DNA from: an uncultured Dehalococcoidales bacterium
GTDB taxonomy: Bacteria; Chloroflexota; Dehalococcoidia; GIF9; AB-539-J10
Assembly (NCBI GenBank): GCA_964534285.1
Contig: CAZHQV010000004.1
Coordinates: 1 to 39,183 of the forward strand
Length of the DNA: 39,183 nucleotides
Reading direction: 5' to 3'
Shown in pieces: positions 7,597 through 39,183 of this stretch (its first letter is position 1; every line of letters starts with the position of its first letter). The notes beneath the pieces were generated by a model, which did not search any database, was not told where the DNA came from, and was given only the letters and a program-made list of their open reading frames with translations. The position numbers and the translations under genes are program-made.

Positions 7597-7749
7597 TAAT
7601 CCAATTATACCATGACTTTGATACCATTGACCGAGGCACACTGACCCCCAAGCCTTGTTTCGTCACCCAGACAGAGCACTCGCTCGTATCGTTGCTGGAA
7701 GGTTGTGAAGCGGGGTGATACTCCAGGGGTCAAATCGGTTCAAGAGACA

Positions 7750-8394: not shown

Positions 8395-8395
8395 C

Positions 8396-8539
8396 GTCAT
8401 GTTGTGTATTGAATACACGCTCGACGGCTTACCTCCAAGCTATTCTCAAGATACATATAGAGAGAAGTGCGACTTGGTTTATCGGCATATCTTTGATTCA
8501 TACTACGGAGAAGGGCGGAGTGTGTATACGAGGGTGTAG
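8396..8539 (+). pseudogene. Orphan 3' gene fragment, possibly the tail of a type I restriction R subunit
   Basis: The frame opens exactly at the repeat boundary. The peptide CIEYTLDGLPPSYSQDTYREKCDLVYRHIFDSYYGEGRSVYTRV resembles, from memory, HsdR C-terminal tails. There is no start codon or N-terminal body. Confidence 0.3.
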
Positions 8540-8645
8540 ATATGGAGTGGGGCTATTGGAAGGCTTTGGGGAGGCCTTCCGCAGAACCTGGATGTGAAGA
8601 GGCGATTGAGGGCGGCGGTCTTCCGATCGGTGAAGCGCCGGGTTA

Positions 8646-9473
8646 CTACAAGTCGTTAAACTCCAACGATATGTGAGGGGCTAGGAGCTTATCAAGCATA
8701 CCCTGTAGTTCCGCCAGTACTGCCTCAAGTGGCGGCAGAGGGTTGACCTGTTGCTGCAGGTCCTCTTCCCAGTAGCGCTTCAGTGTTCTGGGATCTTTAG
8801 GAAGAAAGTCGCTCATAGCACGAGGGCGAAGGCCTTTGTGCGCAAGCTTCCTGGACAGAACTGTGCCCAAGAGTCCGAGGTTCAATTGAGTGGAGTGTTC
8901 TTTTAGAAGTCTCCACACGTCGTAGTAGTCCCGGGATTTTCCCCGCTCAAGCAGGCTGCGCATCTTCTCAGCGAGTAACTCTTCCAATGGATAAGCTAGC
9001 ACTTTTTGCTGCTCATCGGGGAAGGGATGGGTCAATACTGTGCGATATTCCGGCTCAAGGCATAGTGGCTCATCGAAACTCAAGTCCATATAAATCATAG
9101 CCGGGTAGGCTAGGGGACCGACAAACTGAATTCGGACACGGGCATAGCCATCTGGCTTGTGAAGCATCTTAGTGGTGAGCAGGATACGAGACGACTGTTG
9201 CACCTGGCGATACCATGTGTCAAGAATTCGTGTTAAGTCTTCCTTTACCATATCGTGCCTCACGGTGAAGTCCAAATCCTCCGAATAGCGCCAGTTTGGG
9301 AAGTAGACTTTGCGCAGGGCAGTGCCGCCTTTGAAGATAAAGAGCTCTCTCAGTTCAGACACTTGAGATAAGGACTTGAGCACTTCTGTAAGCACATAGT
9401 CCTTTTCCAATACGCCTAAAGCCACCTTCTCGCGGTTTGCCAGCCTGTGCAACTCAGACCTGGATAGAATCAT
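8646..9473 (-). CDS. AbiEii/AbiGii-family nucleotidyltransferase toxin (DUF1814)
   Basis: LEKDYVLTEVL...FKGGTALRKVY...YSEDLDF are signature motifs. The ATG at 9473 overlaps the antitoxin stop (ATGA). Confidence 0.85.
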   Translation of the reverse strand: MILSRSELHRLANREKVALGVLEKDYVLTEVLKSLSQVSELRELFIFKGGTALRKVYFPNWRYSEDLDFTVRHDMVKEDLTRILDTWYRQVQQSSRILLTTKMLHKPDGYARVRIQFVGPLAYPAMIYMDLSFDEPLCLEPEYRTVLTHPFPDEQQKVLAYPLEELLAEKMRSLLERGKSRDYYDVWRLLKEHSTQLNLGLLGTVLSRKLAHKGLRPRAMSDFLPKDPRTLKRYWEEDLQQQVNPLPPLEAVLAELQGMLDKLLAPHISLEFNDL

Positions 9474-10291
9474 CGTTCCTTCCACTGGAGCAGTTCATTC
9501 TCAGGAACGTTTAGCAAAACTTTCCAGCGTTCGACATAGTGCCCTTCACGGGTTGCCAGGTTATCGAGGGGAGCATAGCTATTGCTTATGCCTTCACGCA
9601 GGAGAGCAATCGCCTCCTCGGCCCCGAAGTCAAGCATTTCCAGGAGACAACCCAGGCGCTGGATTGCCGCCCTGTTTCCATTCCTGCGGGCATACTCAGC
9701 CATCTTGACAAGGTCAAGCTCATCCCGGCCATAACAGAGTGCCTTAGCCACCTCCACCGCACCACCACAATATTCCAGGCGGTCAAGGCAGTCGACTATG
9801 GTCTTCTCAGGTTCTGAGATATTCACCCGATATCCATCGAGGGTCGCCTCAGCGACTGCAAAGAACTTTCTGTCGGACATATAGACAAAGCGGTAGGTTA
9901 CCCCAGAGATTTCCAGTGCTGATTTTAGCTTGCGACGGGTTGAGGCTATGAAGACAGTGCGGCTAACCTGTTCTGTATAGCCATAGTAATTGAGGGCACT
10001 GCGGAATCCAATGTAGTAGGGCTCAATAAGGTATGAGGCGATTATGAATTCATGCTCAGTCCACTCGCCCTCACGTCCAGCTTCAAAGGGTAGTATGAGG
10101 TACTTGCCCTTCTCCATACGGCGGAGCCAGTGCCGCTTTACCAGTGTGGATAGCAATTCGCGTAGTCCACTGCCACTGTTGCCGTAGATTTCGGCAGCAT
10201 CATTTAAGGCAAAGAGGCGCTTACCCCGACGGAGCAGCTCTGCCAAGAGGTTGCTTCCTGCGTCGCCGAGAGTTCTTTTGTTTTGTGTCAT
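9470..10291 (-). CDS. AbiEi-family antitoxin / transcriptional regulator
   Basis: N-terminal wHTH-like region and COG5340-like body. It sits directly upstream of AbiEii and is translationally coupled to it. Likely start is MTQNKRTL at 10291. Confidence 0.8.
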   Translation of the reverse strand: MTQNKRTLGDAGSNLLAELLRRGKRLFALNDAAEIYGNSGSGLRELLSTLVKRHWLRRMEKGKYLILPFEAGREGEWTEHEFIIASYLIEPYYIGFRSALNYYGYTEQVSRTVFIASTRRKLKSALEISGVTYRFVYMSDRKFFAVAEATLDGYRVNISEPEKTIVDCLDRLEYCGGAVEVAKALCYGRDELDLVKMAEYARRNGNRAAIQRLGCLLEMLDFGAEEAIALLREGISNSYAPLDNLATREGHYVERWKVLLNVPENELLQWKER

Positions 10292-10319
10292 AATTGTCAG
10301 CCTTTTCCTGACAATTATA
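10292..10319 (-). promoter_or_regulatory. Putative abiE promoter/operator: extended -10 overlapping a perfect 9-bp inverted repeat
   Basis: The minus strand reads TGCTATAATTGTCAGGAAAAGGCTGACAATT followed by ATG. The repeat AATTGTCAG-n7-CTGACAATT abuts the start codon. Confidence 0.45.
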
Positions 10320-10386
10320 GCATAAAACATAAATGCCGGGAACAGTGGTTATCGGCTTGAGTGGGAAGAGAAACGGGAACTAGGAA

Positions 10387-10415
10387 ACGGGGCGGGCGCA
10401 TTGCGCCCGCCCCGT
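10387..10415 (-). terminator. GC-rich hairpin, likely intrinsic terminator/insulator upstream of abiE
   Basis: ACGGGGCGGGCGCA/TGCGCCCGCCCCGT forms a stem of about 12 bp, followed on the minus strand by TTTCC. Confidence 0.5.
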
Positions 10416-10419
10416 GTGG

Positions 10420-10581
10420 TTATAGGAGCCTGCCTGTGTGGGTTTCTAGGACATGGTGGACGATTCGCCTTGCGATCTCGAAGCATGCTGCCATGCGAAT
10501 GACGCTGGCGTCGCCGATGCCTTTGTAGCGTAGGAACTTCTCGAGGGGCTGGTGGAGCCGGGTGACAATCCAGGGGTTCGA
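10420..10581 (-). pseudogene. Truncated RadC-like (helix-hairpin-helix) gene fragment
   Basis: The 53-codon frame SNPWIVTRLHQPLEKFLRYKGIGDASVIRMAACFEIARRIVHHV resembles the RadC/YicR HhH segment (F..V.GIG.AK...L..A.ELARR). A stop lies immediately 5' of it at the repeat junction, there is no start codon, and the JAB domain is absent. Confidence 0.3.
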
Positions 10582-10586
10582 TCAAT

Positions 10587-11009
10587 TCAAGAACCGCTAC
10601 ACAACCCCGCTATCTCGAGCAACCTTTGAGTATCCCAATGCAGGTCCTGCCATATCCGGGGGATGTCCTTCTTCTGTACCCATAAAGCTTCGCCTGCGTC
10701 ACTGGCCACGTTGAGCTCGCCACCTGACAACCTGGCGACATAATCGATGTAGATAACGTGTAGGATGGTCTCCTCACTTGTCTTGACGATCCTATCAAAA
10801 GGAATGAGAGGTCTAACCAGCTCTATTTCCAGGTTTGTCTCCTCCCTGACCTCCCTTTTGATCCCTTCTTTGATTTCCTCGCCGAGCTCAAGCGCCCCTC
10901 CGGGACAGATCCATTTTCCCTGCCAGTAGCCGCCCCTCTCCTTCTTATGCTTCACCAGGAGGATTCTTTCATCGTCGTCCAGGATCACTGCTCCCACGGC
11001 TACTAACAT
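10587..11009 (-). CDS. NUDIX hydrolase, copy 2
   Basis: Same NUDIX box as copy 1. The C-terminal third differs from copy 1 at several residues, and the last residues differ. Confidence 0.85.
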   Translation of the reverse strand: MLVAVGAVILDDDERILLVKHKKERGGYWQGKWICPGGALELGEEIKEGIKREVREETNLEIELVRPLIPFDRIVKTSEETILHVIYIDYVARLSGGELNVASDAGEALWVQKKDIPRIWQDLHWDTQRLLEIAGLCSGS

Positions 11010-11240
11010 GCAACCGAATCTACCTTTGCTCCAATTGGCCTGGCCAGCCAGCCGCAATGCTCACTCTCGGTAGCTAACCTCGCTTGCGTGATCTCCGCCA
11101 CGTCCATTCCTCCAGAGCCAAAGCGCCAGCCAAGACCAGCGCTGTGGCCAATGCCGAAAAGACCGCAACTAGCGCCGGGTGAGATTGCCACGCTTGGCTC
11201 CCACTAGCCGTGGGGTTAGCCAGCGTTTCTCGCCAGCGGC
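10609..11240. repeat. Direct repeat copy B (632 bp), homologous to 7763..8394
   Basis: See copy A. This copy is continuous with the intact peptidase gene. Confidence 0.85.
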
Positions 11241-12312
11241 TATCAAGCCCATCTGTATCAAAGCCGTAGACCTGGGTCAAAGCTGCGTCACAGGTCTCGC
11301 CTTGTTTGAAAAGCCCAAGGAGTTCAAGCATCTTTCCCTGGCCATAACCGTCCATGAGGTATTCCACAAGGCTGTAGCTCTCAGCATAAGAGACATAAGC
11401 CTTTTCAGTCTCAGCCGAGAAGGGACTGCATAGACTACGCACTGAGATAAGCTTGTCTTCGGCAACAGCGTTGTTCAGCCAGGCTTGGAAAAACGACTCA
11501 AGCTGCCCTTCATTATACATAGCCAAACCTTCATCGACCCACACGGGAAGGGCGGAATAAGGGCTGAATGTTGTCTCATGAACGACCACGTGCGTCAGTT
11601 CATGAACTAGAGCTCTCTTACCCCAATCTATTTGTTCTGGCGCGATGCCGATAACGATTATGCCAAAATCGGTGAAGGCCGCGCCCCCAGTCCATTCCTG
11701 AGGAAAAATCATGGCTCCTCGCACATCTGCCGTTGAGTCATAAACATATATCGCGATAGGCACCGGGCTTGCTTCGGCATTCCCTGCCCCCCAATAACAA
11801 ATGGGCTCCAATCTGTCGAGTCCCTGGTCGCAAGCATCCGTTAGTTCTCGAGCGAAAGAATCACTGCCTTCATACCAGAGAAGGGTTACCTCATCAGTGG
11901 CTACGCTTTGCCAGGGATAGCGAACATCATCAAAGTAGACCAAGCCCGGAGGAGTTTCGAGCGTGTTTCCGGCAGTATCCTCTGCTGTCCACCAGTATGT
12001 TACTGCAGCGCCCGGAGGCAGGCTTGCTTTCCTCATATCCCATGTCCAGCTGGTCTCTATTGTTGTTCCTGGAGTGAAATCAGGCCAGCCCTCACCAGTA
12101 ACTTCAGCGTAGTTCATCTTGTCCACCTGGTAGTGAAGACGAACATCAGTTATGTTGGCAGAACTCTCGGCTTCAAGATTGAAAACAAGCTCACTGGGGA
12201 AGTCTATCTCCACACTGCTGTCCACAGCGGAGATGCCGCTGTCAGCCTGAAGGGGCGAGGGAATGAACAGTAGAACCAGAGCTAGAGCCGCTAAGCCAAC
12301 CCATCTAATCAT
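11074..12312 (-). CDS. Membrane-anchored zinc metallopeptidase (peptidase MA-like, HExxH)
   Basis: Signal/TM at the N-terminus (LAALALVLLFIPSPLQA), HELTHVVVHE zinc motif, and a C-terminal TM plus basic tail. The ATGA overlap with the prfB stop implies coupling. Confidence 0.7.
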   Translation of the reverse strand: MIRWVGLAALALVLLFIPSPLQADSGISAVDSSVEIDFPSELVFNLEAESSANITDVRLHYQVDKMNYAEVTGEGWPDFTPGTTIETSWTWDMRKASLPPGAAVTYWWTAEDTAGNTLETPPGLVYFDDVRYPWQSVATDEVTLLWYEGSDSFARELTDACDQGLDRLEPICYWGAGNAEASPVPIAIYVYDSTADVRGAMIFPQEWTGGAAFTDFGIIVIGIAPEQIDWGKRALVHELTHVVVHETTFSPYSALPVWVDEGLAMYNEGQLESFFQAWLNNAVAEDKLISVRSLCSPFSAETEKAYVSYAESYSLVEYLMDGYGQGKMLELLGLFKQGETCDAALTQVYGFDTDGLDSRWRETLANPTASGSQAWQSHPALVAVFSALATALVLAGALALEEWTWRRSRKRG

Positions 12313-13413
12313 TTCTCGTCCCCCATTTTCGAGCGGAGGTAGGAGGTAATGAATCCATCCAGATCGCCGTCCAATACAGCCTCAGCATCACTGACTTCGT
12401 AGCCGGTACGATGGTCCTTGACCATCTTATAGGGGTGGAGAACATAGCTCCTGATTTGGTTCCCCCAACCAGCTTCAATACGCTCGCCTTTGAGTTTTGC
12501 CTTTTCCTCTTCCTTCTTAGCGCGCTCGACCTGAAGAACGCGGGCATGAAGGATTTTCAGAGCAGTCTCCTTGTTGTGATGCTGTGACCTCTGACTCTGA
12601 CACGTGGCTACTAGCCCTGTGGGCAAGTGAGTTACCCTCACAGCGCTGCTTGTCTTTTGCATGTGCTGTCCACCGGGACCGCTGGACCTGAAGGTGTCTA
12701 TCCTCAAATCTTCCGCGTTTATCTCGGCGTCCGTTGCCTCCTCAGCTTCGGGGAGCACCTCCACCAACGCGAAGGAGGTATGGCGAGCGTGGTCGGCATC
12801 ATAGGGCGAAAGCCGCACCAACCTGTGGACTCCATGTTCACCCTTGACGTAGCCATAGGCATGGTCTCCCCTGATTTCCAGGATAGCGCTTTTGATGCCA
12901 GCCTCTTCACCGGGCGAAACGTCCAGTATCTCGGCGCGATAGTCATGTCCTTCCGCCCACCTTAGGTACATCCTGAGCAACATATCTGCCCAATCTTGAG
13001 ATTCAGTACCACCGGCACCAGCATGAAGGGCAAGCATGGCGTTGCGCGAGTCATAGTCACCGCTGAGCACTAACTTGGCCTCCAGTTGTTCCAAACGAGA
13101 GCTCACGCTCTTCAGTTCCCCTTCAATGTCTTCTTTGATTGAGTAGTCCCCCTCTTCAATAGCTAATGCTGCCATTTCAGAAAGATCGACAACTCTACGT
13201 TCTAGGTCACGCCAGTCGCGAACCACGTTCTTGTTCGCCGAGAGTTGGCGCATGGCGGCTTGAGCTCTAGCTGGATCGCGCCAGAAAGTGGGGCTCGCCG
13301 AGTCCGCCTCTATGTGGGCGATTTCCTTTTCCTTACCGGAAATGTCAAAGATGCACCATTATGTCGGAGAGCCGGCGACGCAAGCTCTCCAGATTGTCTT
13401 TCTGCTCCTGCAT
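12309..13413 (-). CDS. prfB: Peptide chain release factor 2, requires +1 programmed frameshift
   Basis: The tracked ORF (314 aa) carries SPGEEAGI...GGQHMQKTSSAVRVTHLPTG (GGQ motif). A 22-codon frame-0 leader MQEQKDNLESLRRRLSDIMVHL ends at CTT TGA C. Reading +1 gives DISGKEKEIAHIEADSASPTFWRDPARAQAAMRQL, which joins the tracked ORF in frame. Confidence 0.9.
13344..13350 (-). promoter_or_regulatory. prfB: prfB +1 frameshift site CUU UGA C
   Basis: An exact CTTTGAC heptamer lies at codon 22-23 of the leader frame. Confidence 0.85.
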
Positions 13414-26155: not shown

Positions 26156-27258
26156 TTATAGAAGCTGTTGTTCTACCTCTCTATAGACTTCAAGGGTCTT
26201 TTCCGCTGTCTGTTCCCAGGAGAACTTGGCCGCTTGGTCCATCCCCTTTTCTACAAGGCTTTTGCTAAGCTCCTTATCAGTGAGAACCTTATCCAAGGCC
26301 TTTACCAGGCCCTCAATATCCTCGGGTGAAACCTTGATTGCTGCCCCGTCTACTACCTCTGGCAATGAGGAGCTGTCAGAGGTTATCACTGGCCAGCCAC
26401 AAGCCATTGCCTCCAGCGGAGCAAAGCCAAAACCCTCGTACAGGGAGGGGAGAACAAAGCACTCAGCACCGCAGTAGCGGGCTCTCAAATCTTCCCCGGA
26501 GACAAACTCGGTGAATATCACTTCCCCGTCTAAATTCAGGGATTTTATGACCTTCATGGTCTGCTTTCTGAAATCTGTCTCCTTCCCCCAGCCTTGCCTA
26601 CTTTGACCAACTTTAGGTCTCTGAACTGCCTTCGTTCCTTGAGCTTTCCAAATGCTCTGATCAAAGTCGGCAGGTTCTTTCTCGGCTGTTCCGAACCGAC
26701 GAAGAGGATGTAAGGATATGCAAAGTCACTAGGGTGAGCCGAGGCCCTGAGAATTGAATGGTTGATACCTTCATACACGACTCTTACTCGCTCCTCAGGT
26801 ATTTTGAGGTAATACATTAGATCTCTCTTAGTAGCTTGAGATACTGCAATTATTCTCGTTGCCTTTGTGACGCCTCTATAATCAAGGTTCAGATAGAATC
26901 TATCCCGAAAGTTGGGACGATGAATATATGTTCCGTATCCCTTGCGATCAAAATACCTGATAAGGTCGTGGACGGTCATAATGTAGGATATCTTGAGGAA
27001 GTTCCCATAGCGCCCCAGGTGCTGGTTAGGCAAATGCACTACTCCACTCAATTTTTTGAGCAGCTTCAGGGCATTCCAGTCATCCAGGATAGCCCTCAAT
27101 GCTTCTCTTGATAACCAAGAGATGTTAAACCTCTCGGAAATGTGCTGATAGATGTCTGAGTAGACTCTAGGGACATCCAGCTTGTCAGCAAGCTTCTGAG
27201 AGTATAAATCCAGTGAGCCAGAACCTGTTGTCACCACCAGGGTTACCATTGAAGCCAC
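26156..27258 (-). pseudogene. GT4-family glycosyltransferase interrupted by a frameshift (two ORFs, 26554..27258 and 26156..26557)
   Basis: The C-terminal ORF has the GT4 motif EGFGFAPLEAMACGWPVI. The N-terminal ORF ends ..LKLVKVGKAGGRRQISESRP. Read in the other frame, the same DNA gives GWGKETDFRKQTMKVIKSLNLDGEVIFTEFVS, the expected GT4 continuation. The frames switch at a G5 run (C5 on the plus strand, 26585-26589). Confidence 0.75.
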
Positions 27259-31353: not shown

Positions 31354-32782
31354 CCTGCAAGTTAACCTCTTGAAGTCTGTGACTCTTGCTCTTAGCTTTG
31401 CTTCCCTTCGGCTTTGCCTCCTTTCCCCTGCTCGATTTCTGTTCTCTTGGTGTGCTTCGCACAAGATCCTCAGCGAAGCGAATCTGTGGTTTTTCCTGTG
31501 GCGGCTCAAACACAACCTCTGAATAGGCTGAAGCGATAGCTGGCTCTTCTTCTTCGCTCTTAGCGAGTGGCTGCAGCAATTGAGGCTCACCTGCAGCGGA
31601 AGGCAATTCGCTTACTGGCTGTGGTTGTTCAATAGCGTCTTGCTCCAGGCTTGCCCTTTCCGCCTCAGCGGCGAGAGCACTCTCCAGGCTTGCCCTTTCC
31701 GCCTCAGCAGCGGGAGCACTCTCCAGGCTTGCCTTTTCCGCCTCAGCAGCCGAAGCACTCTTGATGTCAATTCGGTAGTTGGTAAGTCTTGCTGCTAGCC
31801 TAGCGTTTTGCCCCTCCCTACCAATGGCTAGAGACAACTGGTTGTCAGGAACAACCACGGTAGCCGTGTTTTCGATGAGTTCAATGCTTGCTACCTCTGC
31901 CGGGCCAAGGGCATTGCATATGAACACCTTGGGGTCACCATCCCATTGGACTATGTCTATCTTCTCATTGTTCAGCTCGTTTACGATGCTTTGTATCCTG
32001 AGCCCTCGTGGTCCAATACAACAACCCACCGGATCAATTCCTTCCTGGGATGTTACCACTGCCACCTTACTCCGATATCCAGCTTCCCGAGCCACTGCTT
32101 TTAGCTCTACGACACCATTACTAATCTCAGGAATTTCCAGTTCAAAAAGCCTGCGCAACAGGTTGCGGTGAGATCGGGAAAGTATTACTTGAGTGCCCCT
32201 GCCACCATGAACTACCTCCAGAGCACAAAACTTGAGCCGCTGCCCTACGCGGTAACGCTCATTGGGCACTTGCTCATCAAAGGGGAGGATCCCTTCTATC
32301 CTGCCTAATCCGACGCGAATTTGTTTGGGTTCGACTAACTGGATGGTTCCAGTAACAATCTCTCCCTCCTTGCTGGCAAAGTCCTCATAAGTGGCATGGC
32401 GCTCCGCCTCGCGCAACCTCTGCAGAATAACTTGTTTTGCTGTTTGCGCCGCGATGCGTCCGGCATTTCTCGGCGTGGATTCCATCTCCACAACCTCGCC
32501 AACCTGAACCCCGCCTCGCAAGTTCTGCGCCTCAGCCAGAGAGATTTCTCGATATGAATTGGTGACCGACTCGGTTACGACCTTCTGGAGATATACTCTG
32601 ACTCCACCGGTTTCAGGGTCAATCTTGACAGAGATCTCTTGCTCGGGAGAAAACGAGTCCTTCTTATATGCTGAGACAAGTGCTGATTCCAATGCAGTCA
32701 CAATCACTCCCTTGGGTAATCGCCTCTCAGCGGAAAGCTGGGTAATCGCTGCCATAAATTCCGTTTTCATCAGCCTGGCCAT
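31331..32782 (-). CDS. nusA: Transcription termination/antitermination factor NusA with a repeat-containing acidic/basic C-terminal extension
   Basis: N-terminal domain, S1 (GEIVTGTIQ), and two KH domains (GPRGLRIQSI, IGREGQNARLAARL). 483 aa. Confidence 0.95.
   Translation of the reverse strand: MARLMKTEFMAAITQLSAERRLPKGVIVTALESALVSAYKKDSFSPEQEISVKIDPETGGVRVYLQKVVTESVTNSYREISLAEAQNLRGGVQVGEVVEMESTPRNAGRIAAQTAKQVILQRLREAERHATYEDFASKEGEIVTGTIQLVEPKQIRVGLGRIEGILPFDEQVPNERYRVGQRLKFCALEVVHGGRGTQVILSRSHRNLLRRLFELEIPEISNGVVELKAVAREAGYRSKVAVVTSQEGIDPVGCCIGPRGLRIQSIVNELNNEKIDIVQWDGDPKVFICNALGPAEVASIELIENTATVVVPDNQLSLAIGREGQNARLAARLTNYRIDIKSASAAEAEKASLESAPAAEAERASLESALAAEAERASLEQDAIEQPQPVSELPSAAGEPQLLQPLAKSEEEEPAIASAYSEVVFEPPQEKPQIRFAEDLVRSTPREQKSSRGKEAKPKGSKAKSKSHRLQEVNLQDEVEVEN
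31643..31759. repeat. Three tandem copies of a 39-bp unit, in frame inside the nusA 3' region
   Basis: The unit CTCCAGGCTTGCCCTTTCCGCCTCAGCGGCGAGAGCACT starts at 31643, 31682 and 31721. It encodes 13-aa repeats of the form AAEAE(K/R)ASLES.. Confidence 0.85.
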
Positions 32783-32800
32783 CTACTCTAAAGCTTTGCT

Positions 32801-32824
32801 AAAAAGTGGGTTTTCCACCCACTT
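32801..32824 (-). terminator. Intrinsic terminator-like hairpin in the nusA leader (candidate attenuator)
   Basis: The minus strand reads AAGTGGGT-GGAAA-ACCCACTT followed by TTTAGC. It ends 18 nt before the nusA ATG. Confidence 0.5.
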
Positions 32825-32852
32825 AGCCGAAGTCTATTCCCTTCGTTGCATT

Positions 32853-32881
32853 AATATAGCATAGTCGGGTCAAAACGACAA
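32853..32881 (-). promoter_or_regulatory. Candidate nusA promoter (TTGTCG-17-TATATT with TGc extended -10)
   Basis: The minus strand reads TTGTCGTTTTGACCCGACTATGCTATATT, about 70 nt upstream of the nusA ATG. Confidence 0.4.
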
Positions 32882-33057
32882 ATTGCGCTCGTGGCGCTGC
32901 TTTCTCAGCGGATTCATCCTATGTTACAAGAAAGGCGAAATCTCTAGGACGCGTAGGATATAGGCGACACAATGATTAGGCATCCTTGGCCTCAAGAGTA
33001 TGTTGTGGCTGACCGCGACCGAGATGATGTGTAGCGAATAGCCTGTTGGAGAAACTT

Positions 33058-33089
33058 GGCCTTGCCACCTCTCTCGAGGTGGCAAGGCC
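33058..33089. other. Perfect 14-bp hairpin in an ORF-free region
   Basis: GGCCTTGCCACCTC-TCTC-GAGGTGGCAAGGCC. Confidence 0.6.
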
Positions 33090-33360
33090 TCTGCCTGAAC
33101 AACACCGTTCTCCCCTCCCGTTGTCAGAGGCAGGCAGGGCTCTTACCCTCAGCTATTCTCTCTGTCAAACGGAAAAGGAATCTACGCACAGCTCGGCTCA
33201 GAGCCATGTCTTGTCCCTGTGCGGTAACCTTGAAAGACAGAGCTCCATGCCAGCTTGTCCTGTTCCCTCCCTGATTGTGCTGGAACTCAGCCTGGGAAAC
33301 AGGAAGAAACCGCAACTAGCAATGGCCTGCTGTCTAGCCACGGTCGCTGTTGTGAATCAA

Positions 33361-33397
33361 AAGAAGCTGGCCAGACCTTAGCCGCGACCAGCTTCTT
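33361..33397 (-). terminator. Hairpin downstream of the membrane-protein gene (possibly bidirectional)
   Basis: AAGAAGCTGG-n17-CCAGCTTCTT with T-rich flanks on both strands. Confidence 0.4.
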
Positions 33398-33496: not shown

Positions 33497-34051
33497 CTAC
33501 GGAAGCCAGGCGCCAATCGCACCGCCGTTAGTATACGCTATTATCGGCCAAACCAGAGTGACCAATACAACGGGGATAATGAGCCACCAGCCGAGGAACT
33601 TCAGAGCGCCCATCTTGCCTAGAGCAAAAACGACGAATACCGTCCAGAAAGCTACCGCCCATACCTCGAACATAATGCCGAACTGGGGGAGTAGGGGCAG
33701 CGCAGTGCCGAGCACATTGAACCAGCCTAGACCAATGAGAAAAGCAAAAAGCCCTCCAAGCAGGCTGAACCATCCAGTAGCCTTAAAGTCTCCGCCGAGA
33801 ACGACTTCAAATCCTGCCAAAGTCCATAGTATGGTGAAACAGAACGCAGCAACGGCAACGGCACCGGATACTGTGGGGCCAAACACCAATAATGCGTCCG
33901 TAAGTACCATATAAAGAACCATGACGCTCCCGGTAATGCCGGCGATCACTCCAAGGATACCTGTTCCCTTTGGTGCCGTAATCTTGCCTATACAGAAGAA
34001 TCCCAAGGTAAAGAGGAAGAGACCTGCCACCGCCAAAAGTGCATAAACCAT
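33497..34051 (-). CDS. Polytopic membrane protein (about 6 TM), AmiS/UreI-like
   Basis: 184 aa and almost entirely hydrophobic. The start is preceded by AAGGAGG. By eye it resembles UreI/AmiS blocks (FLFTLGFFCIGKI..K; GWFSLLGGLFA; aromatic-rich TM5/6). The family call is unverified. Confidence 0.45.
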   Translation of the reverse strand: MVYALLAVAGLFLFTLGFFCIGKITAPKGTGILGVIAGITGSVMVLYMVLTDALLVFGPTVSGAVAVAAFCFTILWTLAGFEVVLGGDFKATGWFSLLGGLFAFLIGLGWFNVLGTALPLLPQFGIMFEVWAVAFWTVFVVFALGKMGALKFLGWWLIIPVVLVTLVWPIIAYTNGGAIGAWLP

Positions 34052-34112
34052 CGTGTGCCTCCTTTTATTTAGTTGCCTATTCTCCCTGTTTCTCCGCCAT
34101 ATTCAATTCAGC

Positions 34113-35348
34113 TCATAGCTTACCTCCTTTCAGAATCGAATAATCTACGAGATCTTCAGGGGCTAGAGGGCTGGGAGCATCTTCTGACCCTTGAAGCCAT
34201 ACGTTTCTTAGTCCCGCATCATAGAGCAGATTCACCGCCCTTTGTACCATCTCCTTGGGTGCCGGGGGTATCCCTCTTGCCCTAAACGCAGGATGGTATT
34301 CCACCAAGTTCACATCAATATCTCTATCTAGGGAAGCCAGCCTTTTCCCTATTTTGTGCACCTCCTCCAGGCTGTTCAGCCTGGGATGATAGGGAATGGC
34401 TACTGCACAAAAGAGCTTCCCGGCATACTCATTGACTATATGTTTCACAGCTTCCCAAGACCTGTCTAGATAGAATTGGGCAAGCTGTCTGTCTTCGACG
34501 CCAGTTATGCTCATAAAGGATTCAACACTTACTGCCTTTACATCCGGGGAAATATGAGTCATCCCGCAATCATAAAGTTCATCTATATAGTCTTTGGTTA
34601 ATATCGATGCGTTTGTATCTATCTGTATTGCCAAATTCCTATTCCTATGGCTCAGCTCCTTCAGAAAAGCAATCAGCCACCTTCTGTTCAGTGTTGGCTC
34701 ACCGCCGGAGATGCCAAGCATAGAATAGTTGCCTCCACCTTGATTTATTATCTCAAGGAACTGCCTGGGTGTAAACGGATTTCCAACTGAGGAGAAGGTT
34801 ATGTCCCAGTTATGGCACCAGGAACAGGCGAAATTGCAGCCGTGCGTGAAACATGAAACCCCCGGATGCAGGTAAGCGGAGATTTGGGAAACAAGCCTGA
34901 GGGGCTCGTAACGCTGTATCATATCCTTGTCCGTGATTACTTTCATGCCCTCCTCTACGGGAGTCACGCAGCTTCTCTTAAGCTGACCATCTATCAGTAC
35001 ACAGCAATTGTAGCAGGCCCCAGTAGTACACATGCGGTTCACCACGCCATCACCGTAGAATTGTGAGACTTTATACCCCAACATCTCTAGTGCCGTCAAG
35101 ACCGTGATGCCTGAGGGCACCTGAAATGCGCTACCATCGACGAAAACGTTGACCGGTGTCCGTTCCTCTTCTACCTCTCCCACCGTTAGTGCTTCCGCAG
35201 GGCAACCACTAATACATATTCCGCAACCCGTACATTCGGAACCTTCTACCGGCCAATTGACGAAATACTCCACTGGGCAACTCACCATGTATTGGCAAAA
35301 CCTACAATCGATGCACCCCTTCGTTACACTCAGTTTTCGGAACTTCAC
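34113..35348 (-). CDS. Radical SAM enzyme (PflA/AmmeMemoRadiSam-like core) fused to N-terminal 2x[4Fe-4S] ferredoxin and 2Fe-2S-like domains
   Basis: CIDCRFCQYMVSCP and CTGCGICISGCP ferredoxin motifs. The segment VFVDG..CTTGACYNCCVLIDGQLKRSCVTPV..GM.V is Fer2_4-like. The radical SAM core shows CNFACSWCHNW (CX3CX2C) and GISGGEPTL. The start codon is GTG. Confidence 0.85.
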   Translation of the reverse strand: MKFRKLSVTKGCIDCRFCQYMVSCPVEYFVNWPVEGSECTGCGICISGCPAEALTVGEVEEERTPVNVFVDGSAFQVPSGITVLTALEMLGYKVSQFYGDGVVNRMCTTGACYNCCVLIDGQLKRSCVTPVEEGMKVITDKDMIQRYEPLRLVSQISAYLHPGVSCFTHGCNFACSWCHNWDITFSSVGNPFTPRQFLEIINQGGGNYSMLGISGGEPTLNRRWLIAFLKELSHRNRNLAIQIDTNASILTKDYIDELYDCGMTHISPDVKAVSVESFMSITGVEDRQLAQFYLDRSWEAVKHIVNEYAGKLFCAVAIPYHPRLNSLEEVHKIGKRLASLDRDIDVNLVEYHPAFRARGIPPAPKEMVQRAVNLLYDAGLRNVWLQGSEDAPSPLAPEDLVDYSILKGGKL

Positions 35349-35474
35349 AGATACTGCCTTCTTGTTTCTGCCCCCGGGATAGGCTGCCGGGCGGCTGGCG
35401 ATATTCCTGCTTCCGCTTTCCTCACCGCTACTGAGGAGGAAGTACTAAGCAAGCGCACCAAGTGAACTAAGATG

Positions 35475-36920
35475 TCAGCCAACCTTCGCCTTTAGTCTTT
35501 CCATACTTCTCAGCGCTGAATCATAAATCGCTATTTGCATGACTCTATCGGGCCCATACTGGAAACAAGTCTTGCAACTATTGATGGCCTCCTGGTAGTC
35601 TCCTAGACAATTGTAACACTCAGCTATCTGCATATAACAGTGGCAGGAGGAAGCTGGATGATTGGATATTGACTGTTGATACCAAGTGATAGCCGACTCA
35701 AAATGGCCCAGATGTTGAAGACGACGGCCAATGTAATAATATGTATTCAAATCGCGGGAGGAGTTCTCATACTGCTCAGAGCCTGGGATGATCACAAACA
35801 CACTGGGAATTGTCAGGGTGGGGTGAGTGATGTTGACAACCAGTGGCTCATAGCCTATGGCGGCCAAAGCTGCGGTACACCTTTCTGTCTCTAGCTTCAT
35901 GTCGTTTTCTGACACATTAGGAAGGGAGTCGATAGGAACCAGATTACCTTCATTCAACAGATAACTGGCCTCGTGTATCGTTGTGAATTTTGGCAGAATT
36001 CCCCCGGCATAATAGTCCTGGCGGAAGTCATCTATAGCCATCTGCTGTATTTCGGTAAGAACCCTGATGAGCGCCTTCTCAGGGTGGGTGGCTGTTCCGG
36101 CACAGCAGACAATCTCACTGTTGGGGAAACTTGAGGGGTCATAGGCTATTCCACCCACAGTCGCGATGCCGGTATCCAAACTAAAATCCTTGAAGACCAT
36201 TCTTATGCCATTGGAATGAAACCTTCTGAGCAAATCCTTGGCTACGGGATCTCTTACTGTGGTCACATCGATGGTGGGAACAGATTTCTGTTCCATGCAG
36301 ATTATGGAGCAGACATGCCTTTCTACTACCTCGCAGAGACCTTGCAGAAGAGTCTCCTCCAAAGTGTTGCCAGCGGATAGACCATTGGTACCCTGCACAT
36401 CTGCAAACCATTCATAGGGTATCAGAAAATCTCTTTCTTGCCGCAAGCTGTATGCTGGAACCCAAGAAAAGAGAAGCTCAGCGAATTTTGTCCTATTCTC
36501 CTCCGGTACCTTCGCCTTCTTGCCAGGGATCAGGAAGATTTGGTCGAAGGGAATGGCCTTATCCTTCACATTGTCATATGTGTCTTTCCAAAAGTGCTGC
36601 AGCCTTGGGAAATTGGCATGGCTGAAGCGTTCGATTAGTTCCACTAGCGCACTGGCCTCAGCTTGCTCAGGGGTATAGCCTTTGCCCATAGATTTCGCCA
36701 TGGGGGCATTATTATCTTCCCCAGTCAGGCAAACGAAGACTGGGATGTCAAACCGACGGGAATCGATGCGCAAGGTCTCCCTGACCAGCCTTAGCTTGTT
36801 GCGTTTCAACGCATCTTTGACATTTCGCACGGTATCGCCAGGTGGTAAGGCCTTGTCCAACTCGCTCTCTGGACACTTTGGTGAACCCTGCAACACAATA
36901 TCTGACGCTAGGTCATCCAC
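35475..36920 (-). CDS. YcaO-domain protein with C-terminal TPR-like repeats
   Basis: GKGYTPEQAEASALVELIERF and TNGLSAGNTLEETLLQGLCEVVERH are the ATP/Mg-binding YcaO blocks. The tail YYIGRRLQHLGHFESAITWYQQSI..YMQIAECYNCLGDYQEAINSCKTC is TPR-like. The GTG start lies 9 nt after GAGG. Confidence 0.9.
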   Translation of the reverse strand: MDDLASDIVLQGSPKCPESELDKALPPGDTVRNVKDALKRNKLRLVRETLRIDSRRFDIPVFVCLTGEDNNAPMAKSMGKGYTPEQAEASALVELIERFSHANFPRLQHFWKDTYDNVKDKAIPFDQIFLIPGKKAKVPEENRTKFAELLFSWVPAYSLRQERDFLIPYEWFADVQGTNGLSAGNTLEETLLQGLCEVVERHVCSIICMEQKSVPTIDVTTVRDPVAKDLLRRFHSNGIRMVFKDFSLDTGIATVGGIAYDPSSFPNSEIVCCAGTATHPEKALIRVLTEIQQMAIDDFRQDYYAGGILPKFTTIHEASYLLNEGNLVPIDSLPNVSENDMKLETERCTAALAAIGYEPLVVNITHPTLTIPSVFVIIPGSEQYENSSRDLNTYYYIGRRLQHLGHFESAITWYQQSISNHPASSCHCYMQIAECYNCLGDYQEAINSCKTCFQYGPDRVMQIAIYDSALRSMERLKAKVG

Positions 36921-37140
36921 GGTGACAGACCTCGGCAGTCAAGCCTGTTTGTGCACTCTTTGTATCCTTGTTGTGGTGTAGTAACCATTCCGCCAAGGGT
37001 TTACGGTCCCTCCTCAGGCGCAAAACACTATCCCCACGGAAAGCTGCCAACTGCCCTGCTTTTCCCACATAAGCTTGGCCCCCCACTTCCTTGGCAAGCT
37101 CCCCGCCATGATTTCCCAGAATTGGCTTTCCTGTCCACAA
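36913..37140 (-). CDS. Hypothetical 75-codon ORF overlapping the YcaO start (weakly supported)
   Basis: TTG start without an SD. Its stop overlaps the YcaO GTG (GTGGATGA). An internal AGGAGG-n12-TTG would give a 25-aa peptide, LAEWLLHHNKDTKSAQTGLTAEVCHRG. I recognise no homology. Confidence 0.2.
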   Translation of the reverse strand: MWTGKPILGNHGGELAKEVGGQAYVGKAGQLAAFRGDSVLRLRRDRKPLAEWLLHHNKDTKSAQTGLTAEVCHRG

Positions 37141-37645
37141 CGTGTGTTCTCTAGCCCGGATGGTTGCAGCACCTGACCGCCGGCCACAAGGCCTCAGTCT
37201 TGCTTAGCTTGGTGCCGACGTCTTCCTGCAAGCAACACTCCTCTACGGTCTGTCTTCGTCTCAGGTTTGACCGAGACCGGGGTCATAGAGAATCTTGACC
37301 TTTGTGAATGCAGAGGAGGTAACCAGCCCTCTGTGATAGCCCACCTCCTTTGTTCATGCAATTACAAGGACGGGGATAAGTCGGTTATGTAGCCGGTAAA
37401 GCTCAATCTGCTGATACACTCCACACGCCTTTCCTTGGGGGAAAGAACTCCCGCTTCCTTTGGTGAGGAGCACCTTACGCTGCAGTACTGCCAATCGACG
37501 GTGGCCCTGTACTAGACTACGGCATCATGGTAATATTAGCCTGCTGTTTGCCGTGACCATTATAGCATGACCTTAGGGCTACTGTAAATAGTAGTTAACC
37601 GAGGTACTAACGAACCAGGGATACTATGGTCGTAAGGAGGTAATC

Positions 37646-38077
37646 ATGGAAAAGGAACGCGCTATCCTGGACAAACTCGGTGTAGATGTTGGCGCAAAGA
37701 GAAGTCACATGCATACTCTTACTGACGCAGATATCGTGATGTTTTCTGGGATTTCGGGAGATACTAATTACATTCACATGTGCGAACAGTACGCCAAGAA
37801 GACCATGTTTGCCGGTAGGATTGCACACGGAATAATAACGCTAGGTTGGATATCAGCCGCCCTAGCTAAGTTTCCGGGGACAGCCATCTACCTTTCCCAG
37901 TCAATCAATTTCTTGGCGCCCGTGAGGGTTGGCGACAGCATCACCGCTACTGCTGAGGTAATTGAGGCCAGGAAGGACAAGGGAATTCTGAAGTTGAAGA
38001 CTACCTGTGTGAACCAAGAAGGCAAGGAGGTAGCTACTGGCGAAGCTGGCCTCAGGCTGTACGAGGCACCGGAGTAG
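37646..38077 (+). CDS. MaoC-like (R)-specific enoyl-CoA hydratase (hotdog fold)
   Basis: 143 aa. FSGISGDTNYIHMCEQYAKKTMFAGRIAHG is the hydratase 2 motif region. A strong SD (AAGGAGG) precedes it. Confidence 0.85.
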   Translation: MEKERAILDKLGVDVGAKRSHMHTLTDADIVMFSGISGDTNYIHMCEQYAKKTMFAGRIAHGIITLGWISAALAKFPGTAIYLSQSINFLAPVRVGDSITATAEVIEARKDKGILKLKTTCVNQEGKEVATGEAGLRLYEAPE

Positions 38078-38179: not shown

Positions 38180-38587
38180 TCATCGCTTCTTCTTGGAAGC
38201 CAGACCTTGTTTCACGCCCGACAGTATTTCCTCTCTGGTTGCTCCGGGCGTGAAGACCTCATCAAACCCCATTTCCTTCAAATCGATAGCATCGCGGGGT
38301 GCCATGACGCCCCCGATGAAAAATGCCGTGCGCTCTTTCAGCCCTTCGCGCTCGGCTACCTTAATGACCTCGCTGCCCAGAGTCATATGAGCACCTCCCA
38401 GAGAACTCACCCCGACAGCATCAGCATCTTCTTGCATCGCTGCCTTGATTATTTGCTCCGGAAGCGCGTTGCCGATATAGACAACTTCCATGCCGGCGTC
38501 CTTCAATTCATTTGCCACAGTGATAATTCCCCTATTGTGAACATCGACGCCAAGTTTACTCAATAATACCCTAGTTTTCCTTTCCAT
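38180..38587 (-). CDS. Acyl-CoA (methylmalonyl-CoA family) mutase, B12-binding small subunit
   Basis: LGVDVHNRG (DxHxxG cobalamin-ligand motif), GVSSLGG, and a Rossmann-like fold. ATG 38587 is preceded by GGAGG, so I prefer it over the tracked 38605. Confidence 0.85.
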   Translation of the reverse strand: MERKTRVLLSKLGVDVHNRGIITVANELKDAGMEVVYIGNALPEQIIKAAMQEDADAVGVSSLGGAHMTLGSEVIKVAEREGLKERTAFFIGGVMAPRDAIDLKEMGFDEVFTPGATREEILSGVKQGLASKKKR

Positions 38588-38632
38588 GTTTATCGAACCT
38601 CCCATTTTGTCTATGTTGGAAGAGAGAAATTC

Positions 38633-39183
38633 TTACCAAAGCCCCCCTGGTGTCCACAGACCGAAGGCCTCCTTGAATACCTTGAACAGCTCCCCTTCCG
38701 AGCAGCCTGCTCTGGCACACTCAACACTATAGGGCACGATATTCTCCTTTCTCTTGCACGCTTCTCCCAGCGCATTAAGAGCGCTATTGGCCTTTTCGTT
38801 ATCCCTTTGAGCTCTCAACTTTGCCAATTTCGCCTTCTGCCTTTCCTCCACGCCCTCGGGATAGCGGAAGACATCTATTGGCGGTAATTCAGAGGGAGAT
38901 TTGTATATGTTATAGCCGACAACCTTTATGTCCCCTTGTTCAATCATCCTTTGTTCCCGATTGAAGTGTTCGGCAACTCTCCTATGTATCCAGCCTCTTG
39001 TTATAGCCGCAACGTAGCCACCCATCTTTTCGATTTCATCCACTTCATCCAGAATTCTTCTCTCAAACTCATCGGTCAGAGCCTCGACATAGAAGGAGCC
39101 CCCAAGGGGATCAACTACCTCGGTAACCCCCGTCTCTGCTTGAATAACCTGTTGAGTTCGCAGCGATACCAATGCCGCCTCCT
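38633..39183 (-). CDS. Acyl-CoA mutase large (substrate-binding) subunit, C-terminal part; the gene continues beyond the window
   Basis: VDPLGGSFYVEALTDE..E....I...GG...A...G....I is the conserved end of the mutase TIM-barrel domain. The reading frame is open to the window edge. Confidence 0.8.
   Translation of the reverse strand, partial: EAALVSLRTQQVIQAETGVTEVVDPLGGSFYVEALTDEFERRILDEVDEIEKMGGYVAAITRGWIHRRVAEHFNREQRMIEQGDIKVVGYNIYKSPSELPPIDVFRYPEGVEERQKAKLAKLRAQRDNEKANSALNALGEACKRKENIVPYSVECARAGCSEGELFKVFKEAFGLWTPGGLW

Follow-up and report, generated by a model that had tools for sequence, protein, structure and literature searches.

A 39,183-nucleotide stretch of DNA from an uncultured Dehalococcoidales bacterium (contig CAZHQV010000004.1; "the window" throughout) carries three adjacent genes, for a YcaO protein with a tetratricopeptide-repeat (TPR) tail, an iron-sulfur-rich radical S-adenosylmethionine (SAM) enzyme and a small UreI-type channel. 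In related Dehalococcoidia these are the last three genes of a five-gene operon, which consists of a thiamine pyrophosphate (TPP) enzyme, a protein of ~129 amino acids (aa), the YcaO-TPR protein, the radical SAM enzyme and the channel, and which lies beside genes for an HcmA-like mutase and a MaoC protein. We put at roughly 0.55 the probability that the trio of the window is the 3′ remainder of this operon in the sense of a lineage-specific, partly decayed variant of an anaerobic ketone-activation module. The TPP enzyme, small protein, radical SAM enzyme and mutase would then be, by analogy, the Dehalococcoidia counterpart of the acetone/butanone module known from sulfate reducers.

To our knowledge, the activation of acetone and other short ketones by strict anaerobes has been an open question since the 1990s, and its thiamine diphosphate (TDP)-dependent step has never been reconstituted. 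The presence of a radical SAM gene beside the TDP enzyme has so far been only a passing remark in the literature. The conservation of TPP enzyme, small protein and radical SAM enzyme across Firmicutes, several deltaproteobacterial orders and Dehalococcoidia points to a minimal gene set for reconstitution, to which we add two components not described in the papers that we searched: a channel of the UreI type, through which ketones might enter, and a distinct clade of YcaO proteins found repeatedly in clusters resembling those for ketones. Uncultured marine and subsurface Dehalococcoidia may carry, or have carried, a ketone pathway; our literature search found no report of such a pathway in Dehalococcoidia, and none linking YcaO to acetone degradation or to Dehalococcoidia.

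An intact cassette in relatives and a decayed one in the window

Genomic contexts were compared across metagenome-assembled genomes and metagenome contigs. The cassette is intact in contig L096, where mutase (4065-5891), B12 subunit (5919-6344), MaoC (6449-6931), TPP enzyme (7218-9338, 706 aa), small protein (9468-9857, 129 aa), YcaO (10001-11455), radical SAM enzyme (11540-12781) and channel (12838-13386) genes run in one direction with short gaps, MaoC alone being on the opposite strand. The YcaO protein and radical SAM enzyme of L096 are 76% and 84% identical to those of the window. Its TPP enzyme is 62% identical to that of Calderihabitans (Firmicutes), to which it is, in a single comparison, nearer than to that of locus L012. 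The TPP gene is present also in L097, from a sister Dehalococcoidia clade, as tandem paralogues (1360-3507, 715 aa; 3538-5784, 748 aa) upstream of the YcaO and radical SAM genes, separated from them by a DUF483 gene on the other strand.

In the window itself no trace of the TPP enzyme was found even at E = 10. Remnants of its C-terminal ~120 codons survive in L014 (119 aa) and, frameshifted, in L001, and none are present in the window or L094. We aligned the MaoC-to-YcaO region of five sequences (alignment A3: the window with L001, L014, L094 and L096 among its relatives), and on our reading of it the left deletion junction is common to the window, L094, L001 and L014, suggesting that the TPP gene was lost in a single ancestral event. 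The small gene that followed it is a pseudogene in the window: its first ~20 codons are succeeded by an internal deletion of ~195 bp and then by an early stop codon, and the 75-codon open reading frame (ORF) at 36913-37140 is its C-terminal relic plus read-through. Intact in L096, the small gene has lost its stop codon in L094, has larger deletions in L001 and L014, and is present by its C-terminal part only in L095 and L097. We rejected the idea that the small protein carries a glycyl radical in the manner of GrcA, as it has no Pfam or NCBIfam match and its alignment (A4) holds no RVxG-type motif.

The YcaO, radical SAM and channel ORFs are intact in all TPP-less contigs that cover them. Among four such contigs (dS, the synonymous divergence, 0.15-0.67) the ratio of nonsynonymous to synonymous divergence (dN/dS) is 0.10-0.19 for YcaO, 0.16-0.22 for the radical SAM enzyme (0.11-0.22 overall) and 0.22-0.43 for the channel, compared with 0.13-0.21 for NusA and 0.12-0.19 for the B12 subunit. 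These low ratios and intact frames, over the same period in which the small gene gained several independent lesions, indicate that the trio is under purifying selection. One might suppose that the three genes are non-functional leftovers which have not yet decayed after the TPP loss, as the deleted TPP gene and the small pseudogene of the window would fit; but dN/dS values of 0.10-0.43, NusA-like at a dS of up to 0.67, together with the contrast to the small gene, make this very improbable. The history that we would propose for the sub-lineage of the window is that one ancestral deletion removed the TPP gene, that the small gene then decayed and that the trio stayed under selection. Since the trio was kept after the TPP loss, either it functions with a TPP paralogue encoded elsewhere and acting in trans, or it has a role of its own for which the TPP enzyme is not needed.

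An initial annotation, made from the letters of the window alone, had taken the trio for an operon. Its reading of the layout was sound: the genes lie on the minus strand with gaps of 126 and 61 bp, each start is preceded by its own Shine-Dalgarno-like sequence (GAGG for YcaO, AAGAAGG for the radical SAM enzyme and AAAAGGAGG for the channel), and Pfam and NCBIfam profile searches of all three proteins gave the same domains. The interval that it had drawn, 33497-37140, is correct for the trio and too long by its last 220 nt (36921-37140), which lie outside the YcaO gene and belong to the 75-codon relic of the small gene. What it had missed is that the unit extends upstream to the mutase and MaoC genes, and that pseudogene relics lie between MaoC and YcaO.

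The idea of a conserved stand-alone unit did not survive comparison. YcaO and radical SAM genes are adjacent in L001, L014, L015, L095, L096 and L097 (proteins 76-94% identical); L094 and L102 cover the YcaO gene, not the radical SAM gene. This gene order is kept only in one Dehalococcoidia lineage. For example, the YcaO relatives at 66% (L009/L010), 60% (L006), 56% (L007) and 56% (L008) identity have neither radical SAM nor channel gene adjacent, the radical SAM relatives at 50% (L011), 48% (L002) and 39% (L004) have neither YcaO nor channel, and the channel relatives at 62% and 49% (L012, L013) have neither YcaO nor radical SAM enzyme. The adjacency of YcaO and radical SAM genes is likewise missing across YcaO relatives at 52-66%, radical SAM relatives at 37-50% and channel relatives at 49-62% identity. 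A radical SAM profile search yielded 80 genome loci, 77 of them outside the Dehalococcoidia lineage, and in none of those 77 is there a YcaO gene within 10 kb. Similarly, no radical SAM or channel gene was found near YcaO in nine YcaO orthologue lineages or in 70 loci of a long-TPR YcaO clade. The trio is therefore not a widely conserved unit; its radical SAM enzyme and channel are instead part of a partly described module of TPP enzyme, small protein and radical SAM enzyme beside a B12-dependent acyl-CoA mutase.

Putative signals of an operon frame the remaining genes (Table 1). The promoter-like site, with its upstream TG, was presumably the promoter of the ancestral TPP-small-YcaO-radical SAM-channel operon, judging from its sequence and position, and the block is kept in L001 and L014 (alignment A3). 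At the other end, the terminator is predicted to fold with ~18 pairs at -28.2 kcal/mol (z = -5.1), and none of 200 shuffled sequences did as well. The flank that holds it, ~140-240 bp beyond the channel gene, is also conserved across L001, L014, L023, L096 and L102, even with different downstream genes. Beyond the terminator, the ~575 bp up to nusA (32783-33358) contain no convincing ORF and no rimP, the gene that usually precedes nusA; conservation in relatives is confined there to ~120 bp beside nusA and to the terminator flank. A further hairpin, upstream of YcaO, has columns invariant in all five sequences of alignment A3; in L096 it sits after the stop codon of the TPP enzyme, and it has been kept in the window despite the loss of that gene. 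We rejected it as a regulator, since its sequence is conserved yet its folding energy in the window is unexceptional (z = -1.2).

Table 1. Genes, relics and signals of the trio and its upstream neighbourhood (positions in the window)
Feature	Position	Strand	Description and basis
Terminator, intrinsic	33359-33397	-	~10-bp unbroken stem AAGAAGCUGG / CCAGCUUCUU, then UUUUGAUU
Channel gene	33497-34051	-	184 aa, ATG start; six-helix AmiS/UreI-type protein
Radical SAM gene	34113-35348	-	411 aa, GTG start; two N-terminal 4Fe-4S motifs and NuoG/HydA-like 2Fe-2S domain
YcaO gene	35475-36920	-	481 aa, GTG start; YcaO domain at residues ~78-381, C-terminal TPR tail ~386-480
Small-protein pseudogene	36913-37231	-	Ancestor of ~129 aa; alignments A3 and A4 and the sequence itself
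Conserved hairpin	37314-37349	-	AGGAGGT..ACCTCCT; alignment A3
Promoter-like site	37559-37588	-	TTTACA-18-TATAAT and upstream TG; consensus scan, 11/12 matches
MaoC-type (R)-specific enoyl-CoA hydratase/dehydratase	37646-38077	+	Pfam MaoC_dehydratas 1.4e-23; divergent from the operon
Mutase B12-binding small subunit	38180-38605	-	Pfam B12-binding 2.1e-18
B12 acyl-CoA mutase large subunit, 3′ part	38633-39183	-	Pfam MM_CoA_mutase 1.7e-48; gene runs off the window end

Relation to the ketone clusters of sulfate reducers

The radical SAM enzyme matches Radical_SAM (PF04055, E = 2.2e-16, 60.9 bits), Fer2_4 (8.8e-14) and Fer4_12 (8.8e-10). Across a family alignment of 20 members its CX3CX2C motif (C171/C175/C178) and SGGE (214-217) are invariant, which places it in the radical SAM superfamily; the 2Fe-2S cysteines C107/C112/C115/C127 are invariant as well, and those of the two 4Fe-4S clusters (C12/15/18/24 and C39/42/45/49) nearly so. 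A profile search of the PDB returned the N-termini of HydA1 and NuoG and the pyruvate formate-lyase (PFL)-activating enzyme. Among glycyl-radical activases such as PFL-activating enzyme and NrdG, the core is most like the NrdG2, YjjW-activase and PflA models and the PFL-activating enzyme structures. Its scores nevertheless fall far below the cutoffs of those models (62.8 against 131, 43.8 against 232 and 31.7 against 220), as they do for the activase set TIGR02493/02494/02495 (62.8 against 131, 43.8 against 232 and 31.6 against 174). No Gly_radical protein is encoded in the window or in the neighbourhoods of L001, L002, L019 and L096, and unlike PFL-activating enzyme, NrdG and AmmeMemoRadiSam proteins the enzyme has no glycyl radical enzyme or AmmeMemo partner nearby. 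Its extra clusters, two 4Fe-4S and a NuoG-like 2Fe-2S, are N-terminal rather than inserted after CX3CX2C.

The neighbours of this enzyme elsewhere are informative. At ~20 bacterial loci the gene immediately before an orthologue (37-50% identity) encodes a TPP enzyme of ~690 aa, itself 52-83% identical across phyla, the hosts including Peptococcaceae, Desulfotomaculum, Desulfoscipio, Calderihabitans, Desulfococcus, Desulfobacter, Desulfarculales and Syntrophobacteraceae. A 120-133-aa protein without a Pfam family is usually encoded between the two, and 7-8 of the loci have, no more than 10 kb away, a gene pair resembling methylmalonyl-CoA mutase. In fact, all radical SAM matches from outside the Dehalococcoidia at 43-50% identity that have enough upstream contig follow a TPP enzyme; the nearest relatives outside the lineage are those of Firmicutes. 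By architecture (two Fer4, Fer2_4 and radical SAM) and by the position of its homologues after a TPP enzyme, the protein of the window belongs with the radical SAM enzymes of ketone modules, for which no curated model exists. It has no TPP enzyme immediately upstream, and as every trace of that gene is absent from the window it is a member without its partner in cis. The Fer4-Fer2_4-radical SAM family is also widespread in anaerobic archaea (L024-L093), including Bathyarchaeia, Methanomethylicia, ANME-1/Methanophagales, Ca. Alkanophaga, Hadarchaeales, Culexarchaeia and Asgard groups. The archaeal proteins have an additional insert of GGxGTPxW type, and their neighbourhoods reveal no conserved partner, the commonest neighbour occurring in only 7 of 60 loci.

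The module is known from Desulfococcus biacutus, Desulfosarcina cetonica, Desulfotomaculum arcticum and Desulfoscipio geothermicus, whose acetone- or ketone-induced clusters encode a TDP enzyme, a PFL-activase-like radical SAM protein, a hypothetical protein, a 2-hydroxyisobutyryl-CoA mutase and a dehydrogenase (PMC4103992, PMC7888143, PMC8084838). In the pathway proposed for these organisms the TDP enzyme formylates acetone, giving 2-hydroxyisobutyryl-CoA, which the B12 mutase isomerises to 3-hydroxybutyryl-CoA (PMC7888143). The PFL-activase-like protein and the adjacent hypothetical protein were found in acetone-grown D. arcticum, the only organism with proteomic detection of the ketone-module radical SAM enzyme, and were suggested as subunits or activators of the TDP enzyme (PMC8084838). 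Our locus L019 is Desulfoscipio (Desulfotomaculum) geothermicus DSM 3669, and its order of genes (HMGL-like, TPP enzyme, radical SAM enzyme, thiolase, 3HCDH, AMP-ligase, carboxyltransferase) is gene for gene that of the published acetone-induced cluster (PMC8084838). The radical SAM enzyme of the window is 45% identical to the product of the gene that follows the acetone-induced TDP enzyme in this organism.

Overall, the Dehalococcoidia cassette resembles the sulfate-reducer clusters in the Fer4-Fer2_4-radical SAM architecture (45-48% identity), in the small protein (50% identical), in the active-site signature of the mutase and in the order TPP enzyme, (small protein), radical SAM enzyme. It differs in having YcaO between the small and radical SAM genes and a UreI-type channel after the latter; in the window, moreover, the TPP gene is deleted and the small gene a pseudogene, and the MeaB and short-chain dehydrogenase/reductase (SDR) genes of the sulfate reducers are not seen in the available stretch.

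The upstream genes extend this likeness. A full-length mutase orthologue from L001, 90% identical over the part that lies in the window, has HcmA (4R3U) as its closest relative, with 433 bits compared with 351 for human methylmalonyl-CoA mutase, and the L096 orthologue of the B12 subunit matches TIGR00640 acid_CoA_mut_C at 94.6 bits (cutoff 57). The signature RQL(T/A)G..I(I/L)FD is common to this mutase and to the mutases of sulfate-reducer ketone clusters. Instead of the canonical HcmA residues RQIAGFG ... STDFD it has RQLTGFG ... NIIFD, a variant also present in the ketone-cluster mutases of Desulfococcus, Desulfarculales and Syntrophobacteraceae; it thereby lacks the Asp that presumably binds the substrate hydroxyl in canonical HcmA. 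MaoC is 95-97% identical in L001, L014 and L096, with a dN/dS of 0.03-0.05.

The resemblance of the membrane protein to AmiS/UreI channels, first noted from the sequence, proved real. AmiS_UreI (PF02293) matches residues 2-167 at 29.1 bits (cutoff 25), and 22 homologues carry the same precomputed Pfam match, except one truncated entry; the family is very small, with 22 clusters in 5.8 billion proteins by a word-indexed search. The AlphaFold2 model has six helices (pLDDT 72), and the top Foldseek matches are UreI structures 6nsj and 3ux4 (TM 0.72-0.76, probability 1.0, E = 3e-5); a sequence-profile search of the PDB gave no match. What it shares with Helicobacter pylori UreI (3ux4/6nsj) and with AmiS of the Pseudomonas aeruginosa amidase operon is thus the six helices, the length of ~180 aa and the UreI fold, but identity is only 18-20% and ketone-module genes adjoin it in place of urease or amidase. 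Indeed, no urease or amidase gene was found near the channel among window ORFs of at least 120 aa. At the unrelated locus L012 (5165-8543) the order is TPP enzyme, small protein, channel, so that the channel takes the position after the small gene, with no radical SAM gene within 8 kb. A channel profile hidden Markov model, run against all ORFs in 175 loci, detected no more distant homologue near other ketone cassettes, and we found nothing relevant in the literature that joins AmiS/UreI with acetone.

The YcaO protein and the role of the trio

The YcaO domain is clear (PF02624, E = 1.4e-64, 218.9 bits, cutoff 25.7; general superfamily model TIGR00702, 132.5 bits, cutoff 75.65), and the tail, TPR-like as annotated, matches TPR_2 at 31.1 bits (cutoff 27). 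The ATP/Mg motif is intact: Sx6-7Ex3Qx3ExxER is present as SAGNTLEETLLQGLCEVVER (S182...R201), and E189, Q193, E197, E200 and R201 are invariant in an alignment of YcaO sequences (A2). The ATP motif is quoted elsewhere as Sx6Ex3Qx3ExxER (PMC7774982). The initial annotation could assign the protein to no described YcaO system, and it does fall below the cutoff of every characterised subfamily model. The best-scoring of these is the McrA-type model TIGR03266 (methanogenesis marker 1, methan_mark_1) with 137 bits against 365, followed by the SagD-type azoline cyclodehydratase model TIGR03604 (103.6 against 219) and the Escherichia coli YcaO (EcYcaO)-type model NF040716 (65.6 against 700). A profile search gives only 57 bits to 4q84. 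The AlphaFold2 model (pLDDT 89) has M. jannaschii YcaO (6pe3) as its best Foldseek match (E = 8e-20), with probability 1.0 to six different YcaO structures; by profile and fold the protein is about equally near M. jannaschii YcaO and LynD/TruD, and EcYcaO is farther.

Known YcaO partners and precursors had been reported as not visible, and a domain screen of every window ORF of at least 120 aa agrees: no TfuA, E1-like/Ocin-ThiF, FMN dehydrogenase, protease or exporter domain was found. The partners of an azoline cyclodehydratase are therefore missing, as is the adjacent TfuA gene of thioamidating systems; TfuA is likewise missing among the called neighbours in L001. On inspection, the 126- and 61-bp gaps are too short for a precursor peptide gene, and the 725 bp upstream of YcaO hold the pseudogene relics. 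A conserved YcaO without precursor in a catabolic acyl-CoA cluster suggests a new protein substrate (like McrA or uL16) or a new chemistry. Stand-alone enzymes offer the nearest models. The McrA-glycine thioamidating YcaO (TIGR03266; MJ1094, PDB 6pe3/6peu), the best NCBIfam and Foldseek match, is likewise without nearby precursor or E1-like partner and has an intact ATP motif, and E. coli YcaO, which thioamidates uL16, is stand-alone with a C-terminal TPR (PMC13063428). The window YcaO differs from both in lying below their model cutoffs, in an isoelectric point (pI) of 5.35 rather than the extreme acidic 4.4 of uL16-type enzymes (PMC13063428) and in its acyl-CoA catabolism context. Its hosts are anaerobes, likely of sulfidic habitats where free sulfide could be the donor. 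As bacteria, they are not expected to carry methyl-coenzyme M reductase (MCR). The same two-domain architecture occurs in DVU2210 of Desulfovibrio vulgaris, a YcaO and TPR protein of unassigned function implicated in molybdate sensitivity (PMC7774982), whose ATP motif is closely similar (SAGNTEEESILQGSCELVER), the two being compared by motif only; from the position of the motif, DVU2210 probably belongs to the longer-TPR deltaproteobacterial clade (35-45% identity, no ketone context).

The YcaO of the window belongs to a short-TPR clade of ~40 clusters at 52% identity or more, from Dehalococcoidia and Deltaproteobacteria, with its nearest relatives deltaproteobacterial. Since the radical SAM enzyme and the L096 TPP enzyme have theirs in Firmicutes, the YcaO gene looks like a later addition to the cassette, as far as such affinities tell. 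Its orthologues at 52-60% identity (L006, L007, L098, L174, L175) recur in surroundings like those of ketone clusters. For example, L006 has two HGD-D genes, thiolase-DUF35, YcaO, an ADP-forming acyl-CoA synthetase, AMP-ligase and mutase-B12. At L007 the synthetase is followed by YcaO, and a TPP-small-radical SAM cassette with mutase lies ~13-16 kb away in L029, which appears to be an overlapping range of the same 1.78-Mb contig. L174 and L175 have (SDR-)MeaB-B12-mutase, a PAS/GerE regulator, SIR2, synthetase, YcaO, a conserved 50-aa ORF and glyoxalase; the MeaB, SDR, glyoxalase and regulator proteins found next to TPP-small-radical SAM cassettes show 42-79% identity to these. L098 has carboxyltransferase, the beta and gamma subunits of oxaloacetate decarboxylase (OAD), synthetase, glyoxalase, YcaO, thiolase-DUF35 and SDR, the set reported as acetone-induced in D. 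cetonica (PMC7888143). An ADP-forming acyl-CoA synthetase is beside or near the YcaO gene in six loci. No ketone markers were found in the 70 loci of the long-TPR YcaO clade.

Three smaller observations attach to these neighbourhoods. The ~50-aa ORF directly after YcaO (L174 11587-11745, L175 11646-11795; MG..W.K.K.LLG.G...ILNADRH.FR) is a possible partner or substrate of YcaO; as a precursor peptide for the system it was rejected, having no counterpart in the window or other loci. SIR2 deacylase genes stand before synthetase-YcaO in L174 (7015-7782) and L175 (6700-7467) and after the radical SAM gene in L004 (7208-7960, Hadarchaeales), the proteins being 34% identical to each other. CobB-type sirtuins remove lysine 2-hydroxyisobutyrylation, an activity that would fit a pathway making 2-hydroxyisobutyryl-CoA. 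Finally, a ~1000-aa TPR protein ending in a SEC-C motif is encoded near YcaO in two lineages (L009/L010 9500-12544, L098 14215-17085).

Is YcaO tied to the ketone genes at all? It could be a housekeeping modifier, for instance of a ribosomal or translation protein, that was inserted into the ketone operon with no tie to the radical SAM enzyme or channel. In three lineages genes for translation are found in the vicinity (nusA-infB-rbfA in the window, rpoC-rpsL-rpsG in L008, rho-rpmE-prfA in L009), EcYcaO shows that a YcaO with a TPR can act on a ribosomal protein, and the differing origins of the nearest relatives of YcaO and of the TPP and radical SAM enzymes would agree. We nevertheless consider this rather unlikely, because ketone markers (mutase, MeaB, SDR, glyoxalase, carboxyltransferase/OAD subunits, thiolase-DUF35, ADP-forming synthetase) surround YcaO in at least five independent lineages, and such clusters are a small fraction of a genome, so that we judge chance unlikely, as a matter of judgement rather than of a computed expectation. 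The pI of 5.35 and the low score with the EcYcaO-type model also set the protein apart from uL16-type enzymes.

Under the ketone-module reading, the parts could work together as follows. The channel would admit a small uncharged carbonyl substrate, acetone having the same shape as urea and acetamide, and the radical SAM enzyme, with its built-in ferredoxin and 2Fe-2S electron input, would activate or mature the TPP-enzyme system. TPP enzyme, small protein and radical SAM enzyme would make a 2-hydroxyacyl-CoA, which the mutase (2-hydroxyisobutyryl-CoA to 3-hydroxybutyryl-CoA) and MaoC would process onward. YcaO probably modifies a protein backbone: by the model of the McrA and uL16 thioamidating YcaOs it most plausibly draws on ATP for the activation of a backbone amide in a protein partner from the pathway, with environmental sulfide as donor. 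MCR offers a parallel, being one enzyme modified by both YcaO and radical SAM enzymes. The YcaOs for McrA and uL16, both stand-alone, need neither a precursor gene nor TfuA, and the TPR-bearing EcYcaO modifies whole proteins without TfuA (PMC13063428). That YcaO thioamidates one of the enzymes of anaerobic ketone breakdown is a tentative proposal, possible at a good deal less than even odds; if true, protein thioamidation, known from MCR and uL16, would have its third case.

Several points weigh against the ketone-module reading. The window is without the TPP enzyme, the presumed catalyst of the key step, and the link of its genes to ketones is drawn from comparison, not from experiment. The Asp missing from the mutase makes its substrate uncertain. 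The role of the radical SAM enzyme in sulfate reducers is itself a suggestion, and a tie between channel and cassette is seen in two lineages only. No YcaO is known from the clusters of the four model acetone degraders, and none lies within 10 kb in L019, so that YcaO is not essential to the pathway, and its orthologues at L008, L009/L010 and L099 show no ketone markers. Being about equidistant from thioamidating and azoline-forming enzymes, the YcaO has a chemistry that similarity does not reveal.

The survival of the trio without the TPP gene also fits an autonomous YcaO-radical SAM-channel system, in which the channel would import an amide, urea or ketone, YcaO would phosphorylate the carbonyl oxygen and the radical SAM enzyme would carry out a radical step. 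The genes are intact and under purifying selection after the loss of the TPP and small genes, they have their own promoter-like site and terminator, the window holds no precursor peptide or known YcaO partner, and the channel has the UreI fold. YcaO chemistry yields ADP and Pi. Acetone activation in D. biacutus extracts does need ATP, but splits it to AMP and PPi (PMC4103992), and no YcaO is known from the cluster of this organism. Furthermore, the substrates of all YcaO proteins so far characterised are peptide or protein backbones (PMC13063428). Only in one lineage do the three genes occur together, and each shows a preference for different neighbours. A TPP paralogue elsewhere in the genome would explain their retention equally well. 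We therefore regard an autonomous system as quite improbable. A related idea gives YcaO, together with the radical SAM enzyme, a catalytic role rather than one in protein maturation: a small neutral compound, be it a short amide or a ketone in hydrate or hemiketal form, would enter through the channel, and YcaO would phosphorylate it at the carbonyl oxygen. This is a long shot; it would make the protein the first YcaO with a small-molecule substrate and would explain the survival of the trio without the TPP enzyme.

Other features of the window

The remainder of the window is ordinary chromosome, with cas genes, an AbiE pair, prfB, pnp, dapB-asd-dapA, purA and rbfA-infB-ylxR-nusA. Neither Rfam at gathering thresholds nor ARAGORN found RNA genes in it. 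Type I CRISPR-Cas genes occupy 740-7641 on the minus strand (Cas3 HD-helicase, Cas5, Cas7 (DevR/Csa2) and Cas6), and a 506-aa protein without a Pfam match among them may be Cas8-like. No CRISPR repeat array was detected in 6200-11200 or by TRF, and an array may sit before the window start. Two NUDIX genes (7750-8211 and 10587-11057) share a 300-nt direct repeat, 93% identical (7763-8062 and 10609-10908), and flank the AbiEi/AbiEii toxin-antitoxin pair at 8646-10330; the duplication looks tied to insertion of the toxin-antitoxin cassette.

The prfB ORF for release factor RF2 (12309-13253, minus strand) is without the N-terminus, and a CTTTGAC +1 frameshift motif lies just upstream (13344-13350, minus strand), an arrangement consistent with the known autoregulatory programmed frameshift of RF2. 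A GT4 glycosyltransferase is split into two overlapping minus-strand ORFs (26156-26557 and 26554-27258) with the N- and C-terminal domains apart, and is either a frameshifted pseudogene or a sequencing error. Lastly, a 39-nt tandem repeat (31643-31761; 3.1 copies, 90% match) in the 3′ part of nusA encodes AAEAE(K/R)ASLES repeats.

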